A stretch of 64,000 nt of DNA, from the sequence record ON568341.1. One strand, given 5' to 3'. This document shows positions 18,605 to 62,847 of the stretch, piece by piece. The DNA is from Escherichia phage UE-S1. Made by a program: the position numbers and the translations under genes. How positions within the stretch are numbered: the stretch's first letter is position 1; the number at the start of each line of letters is the position of its first letter. Below the pieces are notes generated by a model that was given only the letters and a program-made list of their open reading frames with translations, was not told the DNA's origin and did no database searches.

Positions 18605-18633
18605 GGGACAAAACACTTTTTGGTGCTATAATA
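18605..18633 (+). promoter_or_regulatory. Early sigma70-like promoter (GGGACA-N17-TGcTATAAT)
   Basis: GGGACA at 18605-18610 and extended -10 TGCTATAAT at 18625-18633, upstream of gp55. Confidence 0.5.
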
Positions 18634-23305: not shown

Positions 23306-23333
23306 GAGACAACTTTAAAATTTGTGCTATAAT
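23306..23333 (+). promoter_or_regulatory. Early sigma70-like promoter (GAGACA-N16-TGcTATAAT) driving a non-coding locus
   Basis: GAGACA at 23306-23311 and TGCTATAAT at 23325-23333. Same architecture as the promoters of gp55, gp32, primase, rnh and the clamp-like gene. Confidence 0.5.
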
Positions 23334-23339
23334 ATTTGT

Positions 23340-23810
23340 TGTAGTAATGACAATCCTGTTGAATGCAGAAATGCATATAAATGAGAACCTGATCCTATCG
23401 AAAATGTAGATGGCAGATGAGCAGTTCAACAGTGCGATGAGCAGAAGAAACCCGTCAGATGTGGGCATAGTTTGAACCCCTCACGGCAATGCGGCTCAAT
23501 AAAGAACTCCGATAAGCATACAGAGAGTTCCTAGATAGACATATAAGGATCGCACCTTACCAGATTTGCTAAGGGAGTTTATTAAGTGATTTTAATAAAC
23601 AGCCTGAAGTTTGATTGTATAGACTTTCAGGTGAGTGTCAGGATGATTAAGACTGACGACCGTTGCATATGACCGTGATAGGGAGAAACCGAGCAACCCG
23701 CTTCCGTTTGCGATTGATCTTTTTACAATATAGATCCGTCCAAAATTCACGATACAATAAATGCTGAAACCATCAGCGTCAAGAAATAGAGACTTCATTG
23801 TCTCTTTTTT
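23340..23810 (+). ncRNA. Candidate structured non-coding RNA (about 470 nt), unknown class
   Basis: Bounded by a promoter and a terminator. No plus-strand ORF of 60 aa or more. Locally GC-enriched with several short stem-loops. No RBS-led ORF. Confidence 0.3.
23788..23810 (+). terminator. Rho-independent terminator closing the non-coding locus
   Basis: AGAGAC-ttcatt-GTCTCT followed by TTTTT. Confidence 0.45.
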
Positions 23811-45574: not shown

Positions 45575-45699
45575 GAAAATCTCCTTGTCGAATTTTGTGC
45601 AGGTTCATCCTGCTTAAAGTTATTTATCAAAAAATATTCCTAGCATTTAAATTTACTGGAATAATTAATGAATTTCTATGATATTATTTATCAAAAATG

Positions 45700-51960
<6,261 letters not shown>

Positions 51961-51976
51961 AGAGTGATATAATGAT

Positions 51977-52005
51977 GTTTGTCAAGGTGATGAGCCTTGA
52001 CAAAC
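51977..52005 (+). promoter_or_regulatory. 11-bp perfect inverted repeat (candidate operator / RNA hairpin) upstream of the gp32 gene
   Basis: GTTTGTCAAGG-tgatgag-CCTTGACAAAC, immediately after a TGATATAAT -10-like element at 51965-51973. Confidence 0.45.
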
Positions 52006-52020
52006 AGAGTTAAAAAATAT

Positions 52021-52048
52021 GGGACAGTATAAAAACCTGTGCTATAAT
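52021..52048 (+). promoter_or_regulatory. Early sigma70-like promoter (GGGACA-N16-TGcTATAAT)
   Basis: GGGACA at 52021-52026 and TGCTATAAT at 52040-52048. Followed by an 88-nt AU-rich leader. Confidence 0.5.
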
Positions 52049-52136
52049 GTAAAACGTTGAAGGAACAATTAAGTTTCTGAAACATTGAAGCCAATTAACA
52101 AATAACAAAGAAACCCCAATATCAAGGAAGAAATAT

Positions 52137-53189
52137 ATGAAATCTCTAGCTGAAATTCGTGCACACCTAAAAGCAGAACAAGAAAAAGCAGAAGCTCAAA
52201 AGAATGGTACATTTACTGGCGAGCGTAAAGCTGATTCGTTCTTAGCTTTCTGGAACGTACCTTATAACGAACCACTAAACCTACGTTTTCTACCAGATGC
52301 AGATGAGTCTAACCCATTCTTCTGGCGTGAACGTGACATGATTAACCTAACTTTCAATGGTGTAGTCGGTATGCACACTGATAAAGTTACCGTTCAAGTG
52401 CCTTGTAATGAAATGTGGGTTCCTAAATCTTGTCCGGTACTGAAAGAAGTACGTCAATGGTTCCAAAGTGCGAATGAAACAGGGAATGAAGAGCTAAAAG
52501 CAATGGCTGGTCGTTACTGGAAGAAGAAAACCTATCTAATGCAATGTTTTATTGCCCCTGATAGTGTTGCAGTAAAAGACGACATTGCACCAGAAAATCC
52601 AATTCGTCGAATTCTGGCTAACAAAGATATCTTTGATAAAGTTAAATCTATCCTACTAAACCCAGGTATCAAAGAATCACCAACTCACTACGTTCAAGGT
52701 CGTGATTTTGGTATTGTTAAAACTAAGAATGGTGGTGGTTATAATAGCTATGACATGTCACAATTCTCCATGTCAGAACGCCCACTCAACGAAGAAGAAC
52801 TTGCAGCAATTGAAAAATATGGTCTATTCAATCTAAATGATTTTATGCCAAAACAACCAACTCCAGAAGAGTTAAAAGCAATTGAAGAAATGTTTGAAGC
52901 ATCTGTAAATGGTGAAGCATATGATCCAGCACGTTGGGCATTTGCATATCGTCCAGCAGGTGTACCAAAACCTAATACTGGAACTGTTGCTGAATCAAAA
53001 CCAACTCCTGCTCCAGCACAACAAGAGTCAGTACCTGCATCAGTAGCACCTACTGCACCAGTTACACCAGCACCACAAGCTGCTCCAGTAACTCCAGCAG
53101 CTACTCCAGCAGTAACCACTCCTGAAGCACCAAAAGAACAACTATCTGCATCTGCACTAGTTGCTCGTTTGAAACAACAAGGTAAATAA
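52137..53189 (+). CDS. gp32: Single-stranded DNA-binding protein gp32
   Basis: LRFLPDADESNPFF parallels T4 gp32 IRFLPSKNDEQAPFA. GGGYNSYDMSQFSMSE parallels VSGFSNYDESKFLNQS. Pro/Ala/Thr-rich C-terminal tail. Confidence 0.85.
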   Translation: MKSLAEIRAHLKAEQEKAEAQKNGTFTGERKADSFLAFWNVPYNEPLNLRFLPDADESNPFFWRERDMINLTFNGVVGMHTDKVTVQVPCNEMWVPKSCPVLKEVRQWFQSANETGNEELKAMAGRYWKKKTYLMQCFIAPDSVAVKDDIAPENPIRRILANKDIFDKVKSILLNPGIKESPTHYVQGRDFGIVKTKNGGGYNSYDMSQFSMSERPLNEEELAAIEKYGLFNLNDFMPKQPTPEELKAIEEMFEASVNGEAYDPARWAFAYRPAGVPKPNTGTVAESKPTPAPAQQESVPASVAPTAPVTPAPQAAPVTPAATPAVTTPEAPKEQLSASALVARLKQQGK

Positions 53190-53258
53190 TAGTTTTTGAA
53201 AAGGTAAGGGGCAACAGAGTTTGCCCCGTTTTATTTCATGAAATTCAAGGAGCGAATT

Positions 53259-56491: not shown

Positions 56492-57976
56492 ATGAAAACT
56501 TGTAAGTTAACCTTATTGGATGAGGTGAATTGTAAATTTGAGGGACTTGATCCCTCAATTAGACAAAAGATGATTCGTGCAACTGAATATGTGTTACCAT
56601 ATGCAAAGTTCACACCAGCAGGACGTATTGGACGTTGGGATGGTAAAGTTCAGTTTATGAATTTAGGTGGAACAACTTATTATCATATGTTAGATAAGTT
56701 ATTGCCTATTCTTGATGAAGCTAAGATTGACATTGAATTGGTAGATCATAGGGTAGATTATGGATTTAAATTTGACCCTATTGATGAAGATATTTTTAGT
56801 GATGTTGTATTCGGTGCAGGACACCACATGGAAGGTAAATCCATAAAACTACGTGAACATCAAGTTAATGCGGTTAATGCATGTTTGGCTAATCCACACG
56901 GATTACTATTGGCAGCTACTGGTGCAGGTAAAACACTCATTACTGCTGCATTGTCAAAGAAAGTGCAAGAGTATGGACGTTCTGTTATAATAGTACCAAG
57001 TACTGACTTAGTACAACAAACATATGATGACTATATTATGTGTGGGTTGGATACTGGTATGTTCTATGGTTCACAAAAAGATTTTGGTCACCAACATACT
57101 ATTACAACGTGGCAATCATTTAACTCTCTATGGAAGAAAACCAAGAAAGGTGAAATTGAATTAACTGAACAAGATGTTAATGATTTTATCGATGGAGTAG
57201 TTTGTGTTATCGTTGATGAGTGTCAAGGTGCAGGTGGTGACGCATTAGTTCAAGTACTATCTAAAGTTATGAACAACGTACCATTACGTTGGGGTCTTAC
57301 TGGTACAATTCCGAAAGATCCGGTTGTCGCCGCAAAAATCAAATGTAATGTTGGTGATGTTATATTTAAAATAACTGCAAAGGAATTACAAGATAAACAG
57401 ATACTAAGTACATGTAATGTAAATTGCATAAAACTAAAAAGTAGTATGAAGTTTGCATCATATGCTGAAGAGTTGAAATACTTAGTAACTGACAGAGATA
57501 GAATGGCATATGTAGCATCATTGATATCTGCGTTATCTGAATCAGGAAACACTTTAGTTTTAGTAGATAGGCTTGAAGCGGGTGAGTTGTTATGTGAATT
57601 TTTAGGTATTCCCAAATCAGAATTTGTTCGTGGAGAAACTAAAAAGAAAGATCGAGAATCATCATATGGTGAAATTCGTTGGGCTGATAATAAAATACTT
57701 ATTGCGACATACGGTGTTGCCAGTACTGGTATCAGTATTTCAAGGTTATACAATGTAGTATTGATTGAGCCAGGAAAAAGTTTTGTAAGAACTATACAAT
57801 CAATCGGACGTGGATTACGCCGAGCAGAAGATAAAGACCATGTGGAAATATATGATATTAGTGGTTCTAATAAGTATAGTGCAAAACATTTACGTGAACG
57901 TTTAGCATATTATAAGGAAGCACAATATCCGCATAGTATAATAGATGTTAAAGATTGGGAAAACACAGCGGGATAA
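56492..57976 (+). CDS. uvsW: UvsW helicase (SF2)
   Basis: RIGRWDGKVQFMN parallels T4 UvsW RYGNWDGRIRLLD. Walker A ATGAGKT, DECQ box. ATYGVASTGISISRLYNVVL parallels ASYGVFSTGISVKNLHHVVL. Confidence 0.9.
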   Translation: MKTCKLTLLDEVNCKFEGLDPSIRQKMIRATEYVLPYAKFTPAGRIGRWDGKVQFMNLGGTTYYHMLDKLLPILDEAKIDIELVDHRVDYGFKFDPIDEDIFSDVVFGAGHHMEGKSIKLREHQVNAVNACLANPHGLLLAATGAGKTLITAALSKKVQEYGRSVIIVPSTDLVQQTYDDYIMCGLDTGMFYGSQKDFGHQHTITTWQSFNSLWKKTKKGEIELTEQDVNDFIDGVVCVIVDECQGAGGDALVQVLSKVMNNVPLRWGLTGTIPKDPVVAAKIKCNVGDVIFKITAKELQDKQILSTCNVNCIKLKSSMKFASYAEELKYLVTDRDRMAYVASLISALSESGNTLVLVDRLEAGELLCEFLGIPKSEFVRGETKKKDRESSYGEIRWADNKILIATYGVASTGISISRLYNVVLIEPGKSFVRTIQSIGRGLRRAEDKDHVEIYDISGSNKYSAKHLRERLAYYKEAQYPHSIIDVKDWENTAG

Positions 57977-57985
57977 ACCCGCTGT
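57965..57985 (+). terminator. Hairpin overlapping the uvsW stop (weak terminator)
   Basis: ACAGCGGG-ataaa-CCCGCTGT. Only a short T tract follows, then a TGATATAAT -10-like element. Confidence 0.3.
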
Positions 57986-58031
57986 TTGTGATATAATGTG
58001 TCATATGTAAACAACAAGGATGTGGAATAAA

Positions 58032-61843: not shown

Positions 61844-62821
61844 ATGGCTCATCACGGCGTGTTTATGTACCCTTATAATCAGGAAGTATCATTGGGCAAT
61901 TTTAATATGCCATTTAGTAATGAAAAACTAACTATCTATCGAGGGGCAAATAATAATTTATCTTTTACTGTTCACAACGCTGATGGAAAATATACTTTAT
62001 TGAAAGATAATGAATATCTTACATTTATGATTTTTGATGCACGAAATAATACTAAACTATTTGATGTTGTATTGGAAAAGCAAGAACCAAGTTGGTTATC
62101 AGAAAGTGGTCAAGCTCGTCAAACATTGGGAAATAAAAAGAAAGTATACTATGGATGTATTGTTCCAGCAGGAGTTATTCAAGATACCAGTCCTGGTTCT
62201 AAATATAGATGGAGCATTACTAAAGTAACTATGGATGGTTCACTTATAGAACCAACACAATATCTATACACTGGAATGAACTTTGAGGCATCAGCGGAGC
62301 TAATAATTTCAGACCAAGCAGCCCCAGTATTTGTTCCTAGTACTGAAATATCTACAGACAAAAATTCAGCCTGGACATCAATAAAGCGTTTATATAATGA
62401 ACCAATTGGTAATGGTATGATAGGTGAGTATGATATACTCGCATCAACTCCACTTCCAGCACAAATGCAGTATGGGTTGGTTGATGGGCTAAGTAGCATT
62501 GCAATCTATTTTGATAAATTCATTGGAAGAATACAGTTACAAGGATGTTTGTGTAATAATGTACCTAATGATAATGAAAATTATAAATGGTTTATAATCA
62601 AATTAGATGGAAAGGATTATATTGAAAATGGGATTGATATTGATGGATTTCCAAAAGAACTTGATGGTATTCAAGCATTTAATTTCAAAGGAAATTATAT
62701 GTGGTTGCGAATCGTAGTAGCAATTCATCCTAAAAATGTTCCAGTACCATACGACTATGCTGCTGTGCGAAAAGTGTATGATCCTTTATTAACTGTACCT
62801 AAAATTTTGATTCGCAGGTGA
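61844..62821 (+). CDS. Hypothetical late protein (about 326 aa)
   Basis: Start refined to ATG 61844 (MAHHGV...) after a GGAAGGA RBS. Confidence 0.6.
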   Translation: MAHHGVFMYPYNQEVSLGNFNMPFSNEKLTIYRGANNNLSFTVHNADGKYTLLKDNEYLTFMIFDARNNTKLFDVVLEKQEPSWLSESGQARQTLGNKKKVYYGCIVPAGVIQDTSPGSKYRWSITKVTMDGSLIEPTQYLYTGMNFEASAELIISDQAAPVFVPSTEISTDKNSAWTSIKRLYNEPIGNGMIGEYDILASTPLPAQMQYGLVDGLSSIAIYFDKFIGRIQLQGCLCNNVPNDNENYKWFIIKLDGKDYIENGIDIDGFPKELDGIQAFNFKGNYMWLRIVVAIHPKNVPVPYDYAAVRKVYDPLLTVPKILIRR

Positions 62822-62847
62822 GACAAAATTAGAAGGTGTGCTATAAT
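62820..62847 (+). promoter_or_regulatory. Early sigma70-like promoter (GAGACA-N16-TGcTATAAT)
   Basis: GAGACA at 62820-62825 and TGCTATAAT at 62839-62847, upstream of the primase gene. Confidence 0.5.

Follow-up and report, generated by a model that had tools for sequence, protein, structure and literature searches.

The question of how the gene for a gp32-like single-strand DNA-binding protein (SSB) is controlled, and of whether a long palindrome before that gene works as DNA or as RNA, is raised by a 176-nt gap in the genome of Escherichia phage UE-S1 (record ON568341.1), which lies between an open reading frame (ORF) for a virion structural protein of 433 amino acids (aa) and a 350-aa ORF. 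The stretch of 64,000 nucleotides that was analysed, referred to here as the window, is ~97% identical over this region to Escherichia phages 121Q, PBECO4, G17, phAPEC6 and other Asteriusvirus jumbo phages. The initial annotation described the gap as a complex regulatory region upstream of gene 32, which is borne out by its conservation across relatives and by the match of the 350-aa ORF to Pfam PF08804 (29.5 bits, with a cut-off of 26.8), the homologues of this ORF being labelled SSB in related phage records. In T4, gene 32 is autoregulated via a structured element and an unstructured A/U tract (PMC3014915). For the gap studied here, the favoured reading, to which a probability of roughly 0.55 is given, is that it would form a module controlling both the transcription and the translation of the gp32-like gene, comprising promoters, hairpins that would stabilise the 5′ end of the message and a candidate translational operator.

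Tandem promoters and the hairpins that follow them

All of the elements listed in the initial annotation are present, namely the two -10 elements (TGATATAAT at 51965-51973 and TGCTATAAT at 52040-52048), the palindrome arms GTTTGTCAAGG and CCTTGACAAAC and the ATG at 52137, and 88 nt do separate the end of the second -10 from this ATG. Both members of the tandem -10 pair are real, but the first is not a stray element, having its own -35-like GGGACA at a 16-nt spacer; the gap contains a distal promoter, P1, and a proximal one, P2 (Table 1). The second had been called a full early promoter, a description that could not be kept, since a TTGACA -35, as in classical early promoters, is absent from both P1 and P2, which belong to the phage-specific class described for phages CBB and GAP32.

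The motif GRGAHA-N13-TGNTATAAT, with an extended -10 TGnTATAAT, occurs 7 times in the window, where 0.02 copies would be expected, always on the + strand and with invariant spacing. Besides P1 and P2 it marks five further sites, of which those at 18605, 45699, 57970 and 62820 lie directly upstream of + strand ORFs. For CBB and GAP32, “divergent RpoD-like” promoters with a TGAAACG/TGGTATAAT motif have been described before DNA-synthesis genes (PMC5259590). Like these, P1 and P2 have an A-tract, a -35-like element of 7 nt at a constant distance and the extended -10 TGnTATAAT, and the traits by which that class is recognized (a TATA-type -10, a non-TTGACA -35-like element at fixed distance and a position before DNA-metabolism genes) are all found here; the gp32 promoter pairs of CBB, GAP32 and BF themselves carry the published TGAAAC motif. 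The difference lies in the -35-like word, which in Asteriusvirus is G(G/A)GACA(A/G) and not TGAAACG. In sister genera the gp32 promoter pair has the same geometry with a different word, i.e., TGAAAC(G/A) in Eneladus- and Mimasvirus, TGAACAA in RaK2 and TGGGACA in the Munch group. P1 and P2 represent a phage-specific promoter class, which is probably active in the middle or replication phase. The A6 tract before P2 would, from its position and composition, be UP-element-like; an A-tract is kept there in most lineages, RaK2, Vibrio 2.275.O and the Eneladusvirus phages being AT-rich with no clear A-run.

The wider survey covered the window and short fetched loci, with gp32 upstream regions gathered from GenBank phages, IMG/VR and metagenomes (17 lineages). 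A promoter followed by a hairpin stands before gp32 in every lineage examined, including Asterius-, Alcyoneus-, Eneladus- and Mimasvirus, the Munch group, a Vibrio phage and metagenomic lineages. The distal promoter was found throughout, and the proximal -10 ends 77-117 nt 5′ of the ATG in 15 of the 17 lineages, the exceptions being the locus L053, which has no P2, and the Vibrio phage, whose second -10 is too near the ATG for scoring. Each gp32 promoter that could be scored is followed by a hairpin that begins 0-14 nt, usually 2-8 nt, past the -10. When the 44 nt starting 3 nt past the -10 were folded and compared with dinucleotide shuffles, the mean z-score was -3.4 for the distal promoters (below -1 in 15 of 18) and -2.7 for the proximal ones (13 of 15), whereas the window's remaining five promoters of the class gave values of +0.85 to -1.08. 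As there is no structure at these five, the hairpins go with the gp32 control region rather than with the promoter class, and the idea that 5′ hairpins are a general trait of the class was rejected on the same values.

These results also bear on the explanation that the elements are generic, PeSL-like promoter-stem-loop shuffling cassettes, or chance, with no gp32-specific role. Composite units of promoter and stem-loop exist in T4-like phages, the PeSL cassette being an early promoter that follows the sigma-70 consensus, has a stem-loop over its -35 and -10 boxes or between them, and recurs through hyperplastic regions beside ORFans (PMC2839356). The units before gp32 share with it the composite build, the AT-rich upstream tract, tandem duplication and a copy number that varies between close relatives (two in nearly all lineages, three in JNE01 and Turkey5, one in L053). 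They differ from it in that P1 and P2 do not follow the sigma-70 consensus, with no TTGACA at -35, in that the stem-loops lie 3′ of the -10 and are not polyG/polyC, in that the hairpin is not a general companion of this promoter class, and in that the locus belongs to a conserved replication/recombination core and not to a hyperplastic ORFan region. With the hairpins confined to gp32 promoters, and with chance excluded by the covariation described below and by the conservation across 17 lineages, this explanation was discarded as extremely unlikely.

The lineages that depart from the usual pair are of some interest in their own right. In the Asteriusviruses JNE01 (L006, 833-1110) and Turkey5 (L048, 533-811) there are three promoter-hairpin units, and the inserted middle hairpin starts with GTTTGT, as does the hairpin that follows P1 (H1). 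L053 (JACCDR010416157.1, ~300-600), whose gp32 is 78% identical, has one promoter only, TGCTACAAT, with a 14-16-bp hairpin after it, and carries a seemingly decayed P2 (AGGACG...TGCAAAAAAAT) without the hairpin that follows P2 elsewhere (H2), with the leader box retained as GACAAAGAAAC. The more distant gp32 genes (42-51% identity; environmental contigs L031-L045 and L066-L078) have a consensus sigma-70 promoter with a hairpin right after the -10, and their leaders hold 2-4 copies of AGGCA (TTAGGCAAA / AAGGCAAT) between the promoter-adjacent hairpin and the ribosome-binding site (RBS). Since these genes share the layout with a different box, the arrangement of a promoter, a hairpin and a box repeated in the leader must predate either box sequence. 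In some records small hypothetical proteins have been annotated in the gap (L007, 912-1010, - strand; L049, 1064-1195, - strand; L051, 1003-1092 and 1121-1219, + strand); these ORFs overlap the promoters and hairpins, vary between phages and are probably over-calls. A 32-33-aa minus-strand ORF in some records, which overlaps P2 and H2, was likewise treated as spurious.

Two other promoter candidates within the gap were rejected, i.e., the TTGACA in the right arm of the palindrome as a -35, for which there is no -10 at 16-18 nt and which is missing in A4 and JNE01, and a T4-late-like TATAAAAA in the P2 spacer, which is not kept in ph0011 or A4. In several Eneladus- and Mimasvirus loci (L008, L009, L012, L014, L019 and L051), a terminator hairpin overlaps the upstream stop codon just 5′ of P1, following which a T4-late-like (T)ATAAATA stands directly before the P1 -35-like element; gp32 of these phages may have a late promoter besides the two tandem ones. 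No conserved equivalent of (T)ATAAATA before P1 was seen in Asteriusvirus. In the window, the -35-like element of P1 overlaps the final codons of the structural ORF, which is 433 aa long here and 428 aa in G17 and phAPEC6; an A-run within 51936-51960 is one A shorter, which moves the stop from a TAG before CGGGACA to the TAG at 51958-51960, and the ORF then reads through the element.

As for the other sites of the class, the one at 23306 sits among minus-strand ORFs and would be antisense or drive an unannotated RNA. The last -10 bases of the promoter at 45699-45726 are overlapped by an 11-bp perfect palindrome (ATTTTCAATGA AAA TCATTGAAAAT, 45725-45749) in a divergent intergenic region, which starts too far upstream to stay whole in the transcript of that promoter. 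At ~57968-57997, the -35-like GGGATA lies inside a hairpin, GCGGGATAAACCCGC, that resembles the terminator of the preceding gene, making a compact overlap of terminator and promoter.

The palindrome after P1: DNA operator or RNA hairpin

The palindrome had been noticed as a perfect 11-bp inverted repeat placed 4 nt after the first -10. It is indeed perfect and beyond chance: the window has 8 distinct perfect inverted repeats with arms of 11 bp or more and a loop of at most 10 nt, against 0.4 in dinucleotide shuffles (~20-fold), most of the other long perfect hairpins being intergenic and terminator-like. The repeat is, however, 12 bp long, one pair more than the 11-bp arms (51977-51987 and 51995-52005), and the 11-bp arm follows the -10 after 3 nt. 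As RNA, H1 forms a 13-bp stem with a closing U.G pair and a 5-nt loop (-18.4 to -19.2 kcal/mol; z -6.8), which starts 2-3 nt past the -10 of P1.

Spanning ~-4 to +27 of P1, the palindrome is in the classic position for steric repression, and its 12-bp symmetry, perfect in the window, together with the outer half-sites TTTGTC/GACAAA, kept within Asteriusvirus, would be compatible with a DNA operator at which a dimeric phage or host repressor blocks P1. Its natural variation argues otherwise. Among the Asteriusvirus sequences, only that of the window forms a perfect palindrome. In 121Q, G17, phAPEC6 and ph0011, A51984 is replaced by G, making a G.U pair in H1, and most 121Q-type phages have a palindrome that is already imperfect as DNA; in the TH47 group the G.U pair lies one position further along, in A4 the stem is one pair longer and contains two G.U pairs, and in JNE01 the core GGAGG/CCUCC is fully compensated and the outermost pair has turned from U-A to A-U. 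Every one-sided change is a transition that can be accommodated as a wobble pair on the + strand only, giving C.A on the - strand; in effect, changes that break the symmetry of the DNA and keep the pairing of the RNA (A-U to G.U) already occur in nature. The + strand RNA is the more stable one in 9 of 10 variants, by a mean of 3.8 kcal/mol.

The spacing of TTGT to ACAA, which should be fixed in an operator recognized by DNA symmetry, ranges from 14 to 21 bp (17 in the window, 19 in A4, 21 in JNE01, 14 in RaK2 and 19 in the Vibrio phage). Hairpins of unrelated sequence occupy the same position in other genera (the Mimas, Eneladus and Munch groups), H1 not being alignable across genera by MAFFT, so that each variant was folded separately; the half-site motif has no other copy in the 64-kb window. 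Taken together, the restriction to G.U changes, the stability of the + strand and the variable spacing argue that the palindrome acts as a stem-loop in the sense-strand RNA and not as a repressor operator, the latter being very unlikely. Of the two uses initially suggested for the palindrome, it is the 5′ hairpin that the comparative data favour, and the reservation that it might be neither conserved nor transcribed does not apply, as relatives conserve the structure of the stem, which is part of the sense transcription unit. A 13-codon ORF over the palindrome (MMFVKVMSLDKQS and a stop, 51972-52013) was rejected, as it is not kept (MLFVGG and a stop in A4, M and a stop in JNE01).

An RNA stem at this position need not act on the transcripts of P1. 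It has been considered that H1 is mainly an attenuator or insulator, or a 3′-end protector, for read-through from the upstream late gene, which would separate late from replication-phase expression and make the adjacency to P1 secondary. Consistent with that, no canonical terminator lies between the upstream stop and P1 in Asteriusvirus, whereas one is present in the Munch, Eneladus- and Mimasvirus groups, Hallingskeid, EJP2 and L053, and H1 is strongest where the terminator is missing (-18 kcal/mol in Asteriusvirus, -12 to -14 kcal/mol in the Vibrio phage). The full stem also starts 5′ of any plausible P1 start, and in JNE01 it has a compensated outermost pair and is followed by TTTT; the intergenic terminators that make up most of the other long perfect hairpins of the window point the same way. 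An intrinsic terminator has, however, a G+C-rich stem followed by a U-tract, and the stem of H1 is followed by GAGUUAAAAAAUA in the window and by an A-tract in place of the U-tract in most relatives as well; the terminator scan made no call at H1, though it called the terminator of gp32 (Table 1). H1 is therefore not a terminator of the intrinsic type. Furthermore, the hairpin after P1 persists even in genera with a canonical terminator 5′ of P1, and RaK2 lacks both the terminator and a strong H1. A main role in read-through is possible, though unlikely. As a second role it is easier to accept: because H1 starts 5′ of the P1 start, its outer pair is compensated in JNE01 and Asteriusvirus combines an unusually long H1 with the lack of a canonical terminator before P1, H1 would in this genus probably act also on transcripts that read through from upstream, as a barrier or a processing boundary.

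The hairpin after P2 and the A-rich leader

The second hairpin, H2, begins 7 nt past the -10 of P2. Its outer stem (GUU/AAC) is separated by a 2x2 purine internal loop (GA/GA) from the inner stem AGGAAC/GUUUCU, which carries a loop of 5-6 nt. This loop is AAUUAA in the window and AAUGAA in 121Q-type relatives, and most lineages have A(U/G)GAA with a closing C-G pair. MAFFT gave no single register across the groups, and covariation was analysed per group. In five distinct Asteriusvirus sequences, compensatory double changes affect 5 of the 11 pairs, a number reached by 0-1 of 500 shuffles, and pairing amounts to 82%, with 31-49% for slid registers. Ten Mimas/Eneladus-type sequences show double changes at 3 of 8 pairs (reached by 23 of 500 shuffles), and their pairing of 92.5% compares with 20-53% for slid registers. 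RNAalifold, run unguided, recovers both H1 and H2. The repeats TTGAAGG (52057-52063) and TTGAAGC (52085-52091), which had been pointed out as a feature of the leader, are present but are not kept beyond the closest relatives, and the first of them is the 5′ half of H2. Elsewhere in the window, on the minus strand at 23788-23805, a hairpin GAGAC-AAUGAA-GUCUC has the loop of the 121Q-type H2, and the AUG in this loop starts a 68-aa minus-strand ORF; the likeness may well be coincidental, matches to short loops being frequent.

The leader was said to be AU-rich, and it is more aptly called A-rich, with 50% A over its 88 nt and 55% over the last 53 nt, against 34% in the window (A+T, 70% vs 66%). 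Neither the centroid fold nor RNAalifold gives a stable structure 3′ of H2. In several genera, H2 is followed by a block AAGC(C/A)AAWUWAAC. The box ACAAAGAARC occurs once in the 64-kb window, and in 43 of the fetched loci it is found in the gp32 leader only, on the sense strand, in 1-2 copies that end ~20-22 nt before the ATG; RaK2, the Vibrio phage and the TH47 group have variants such as AACAAACAAAC. Scanning viral_contigs with TATAATGNNGTTTGTC gave >120 unrelated chance matches and was uninformative.

H2 and the A-rich tract with its ACAAAGAARC box would be the best candidate for a translational operator, possibly bound cooperatively by gp32, with the hairpin taking the place of the T4 pseudoknot. 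As in T4, a gp32-like SSB gene with several promoters lies in the replication/recombination core, and a structured element at the (here predicted) mature 5′ end, ~70-80 nt before the AUG, is followed by an unstructured A-rich tract that runs into the RBS. Of the features that make up a T4-type operator, the gp32-family gene and the unstructured A/U-rich tract with repeats are found here, and the pseudoknot is not: where T4 has an H-type pseudoknot (~67 nt before the AUG) there is a bipartite hairpin, minimum-free-energy folding, the centroid and RNAalifold give no H-type pseudoknot, and no conserved complementarity of at least 4 nt between the loop and downstream sequence was found across 11 lineages. 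An Rfam scan of 51800-52300 (E up to 10) returned only noise. The leader differs from that of T4 also in having ACAAAGAARC boxes (1-2 copies, with a single UUAA) instead of UUAAA repeats, a structured 5′ end that would arise at a predicted start site and not by RNase E cleavage, two tandem promoter-hairpin units and a protein distantly related to T4 gp32. It has to be noted that RB49 has no pseudoknot either, and that autocontrol in diverse relatives has been said to need study (PMC3014915).

The layout recurs in all related jumbo phages and, as judged from sequence, resembles the T4 gene 32 control region without copying it. Autoregulation by gp32 through H2 and the A-rich tract is plausible, though on balance doubtful. 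It is proposed, tentatively, that H2 with its C-A(U/G)GAA-G loop and the ACAAAGAARC boxes may constitute a previously undescribed, family-wide autoregulatory operator of RaK2/121Q-type gp32-like SSBs, the distant gp32 genes having the same design with AGGCA boxes.

The conserved loop of H2 also enters into a different explanation, in which H1, with or without H2, would be a protein-binding RNA element, i.e., a nucleation site for gp32 or a target of another phage translational repressor or processing factor. The A(U/G)GAA loop closed by C-G is kept across genera while the stems covary, phages of E. coli, Klebsiella and Vibrio share the sequence at the base of H1 (UUGU...ACAA, AGG/CCU), and GACAAAC, from the 3′ arm of this hairpin, is similar to the leader box (G/A)ACAAAGAAAC; in T4, both gp32 and gp43 use structured RNA operators (PMC3014915). 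The hairpin after P1 is, however, of unrelated sequence in the Mimas, Eneladus and Munch groups, L053 does without P2 and H2, and conservation at the base of the stem may reflect a constraint on the promoter discriminator or start site, which leaves this explanation distinctly unlikely.

A proposed control module for the gp32-like gene

In the favoured model of a control module, two tandem promoters of the phage class would drive a monocistronic gp32 mRNA that ends at the downstream terminator. Sigma-70 promoters start 7-8 nt past the -10, with a preference for purines, which would place the starts at ~G51981 for P1 and ~G52056 for P2. From these predicted starts, both transcripts would begin flush with a hairpin, that of P1 with one of 8 bp and that of P2 with the whole of H2. 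Base-paired 5′ ends and 5′-terminal stem-loops protect E. coli mRNAs from RppH/RNase E-dependent decay, and stabilisation of mRNA by a 5′-terminal stem-loop was reportedly described by Emory in 1992 and by Bouvet and Belasco in the same year (both cited in PMC3997798). The gene 32 mRNA of T4 is its most stable message and has a structured 5′ end after RNase E processing (PMC3014915). On these two grounds, stabilisation is proposed as the primary role of both hairpins, which would shield the abundant gp32 message from 5′-end-dependent decay by RppH and RNase E. In that, the leader would resemble the ompA/papA-type stabilisers, with which it would share a stable hairpin flush with the predicted 5′ end, an efficiently translated leader and a 3′ terminator hairpin. 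It differs from them in that the starts are predicted ones, in that the stem of H1 reaches 4-5 nt 5′ of the predicted start, and in that the loop of H2 is conserved in sequence, which would be needless in a passive stabiliser.

Several observations weigh against this model. H1 is weak in RaK2 (-1.8 to -3.5 kcal/mol); the outlying 4-5 nt of its 5′ arm are upstream of any plausible P1 start, and the compensation of the outermost pair in JNE01 is a hint that the whole stem counts in transcripts that arrive from upstream. In the distant relatives, the hairpin begins 0-1 nt past the -10 and would mostly be lost from the transcript of its own promoter. The energy of H2, taken alone, is unexceptional, lying at the 17th percentile of random positions. 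Identity across genera is 62-75% in the 53-nt leader, compared with 44-63% at fourfold-degenerate sites of the gene, an excess that is modest and partly due to low complexity. The 350-aa protein is a distant relative of gp32, since a phmmer search against the PDB matched no solved gp32 structure, and its Pfam score is marginal. Finally, a literature search on Asterius-, Alcyoneus-, Mimas- and Eneladusvirus found no transcriptome, start-site, half-life or binding data, and the PA5oct RNA-seq paper contains nothing on this locus.

Table 1. Features in and around the gap upstream of the gp32-like gene, with the other promoters of the same class in the window
Feature	Position	Strand	Description
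Virion structural protein gene	50659-51960		433 aa; upstream of the gap
Distal promoter P1	51946-51973	+	-35-like GGGACA 51946-51951, 16-nt spacer, extended -10 TGATATAAT 51965-51973
Hairpin H1	51976-52006	+	12-bp perfect inverted repeat plus U.G pair; arms 51976-51987 / 51995-52006
A6 tract	52012-52017	+	~-44 to -39 of P2, just 5′ of its -35-like element
Proximal promoter P2	52021-52048	+	-35-like GGGACA 52021-52026, 16-nt spacer, extended -10 TGCTATAAT 52040-52048
Hairpin H2	52056-52083	+	At predicted P2 start; folding, covariation, RNAalifold
Unstructured A-rich leader	52084-52136	+	No centroid pairs; 55% A
Leader block	52088-52099	+	AAGCCAATTAAC; similar forms in several genera
gp32-leader-specific box	52104-52114	+	AACAAAGAAAC (ACAAAGAARC)
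Shine-Dalgarno	52124-52130	+	AAGGAAG
gp32-like SSB gene	52137-53189	+	350 aa; Pfam PF08804, SSB annotation in relatives
Intrinsic terminator of gp32 unit	53208-53227	+	GGGGCAACAGAGTTTGCCCC then GTTTTATTT; terminator scan; annotated in phage G17
Other same-class promoters	18605-18632, 23306-23333, 45699-45726, 57970-57997, 62820-62847	+	

The gp32-like gene is followed by a terminator and then by homologues of RecA/UvsX and UvsY, an order that suggests a monocistronic transcription unit at the head of a recombination cluster. On the other side of the gap, beyond the structural gene, the large terminase subunit (47965-50625) is 886 aa long, compared with 545 aa in G17 and phAPEC6; the extra ~340 aa match LAGLIDADG/homing-endonuclease domains and, weakly, an intein-splicing domain, all of them placed before the match to Terminase_6N, and the insertion looks like an intein that is missing from close relatives.

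For annotators, these results give reason to drop the small ORFs called inside the gap, and they provide a compact promoter consensus for Asteriusvirus. The recognition by gp32 of its own message is understood only for the T-even phages. The locus described here represents a tractable non-T-even gp32 leader found across several genera, with two hairpins that show covariation or strand-asymmetric variation and a unique box, and the question becomes directly testable in jumbo phages that are now used for therapy and biocontrol.

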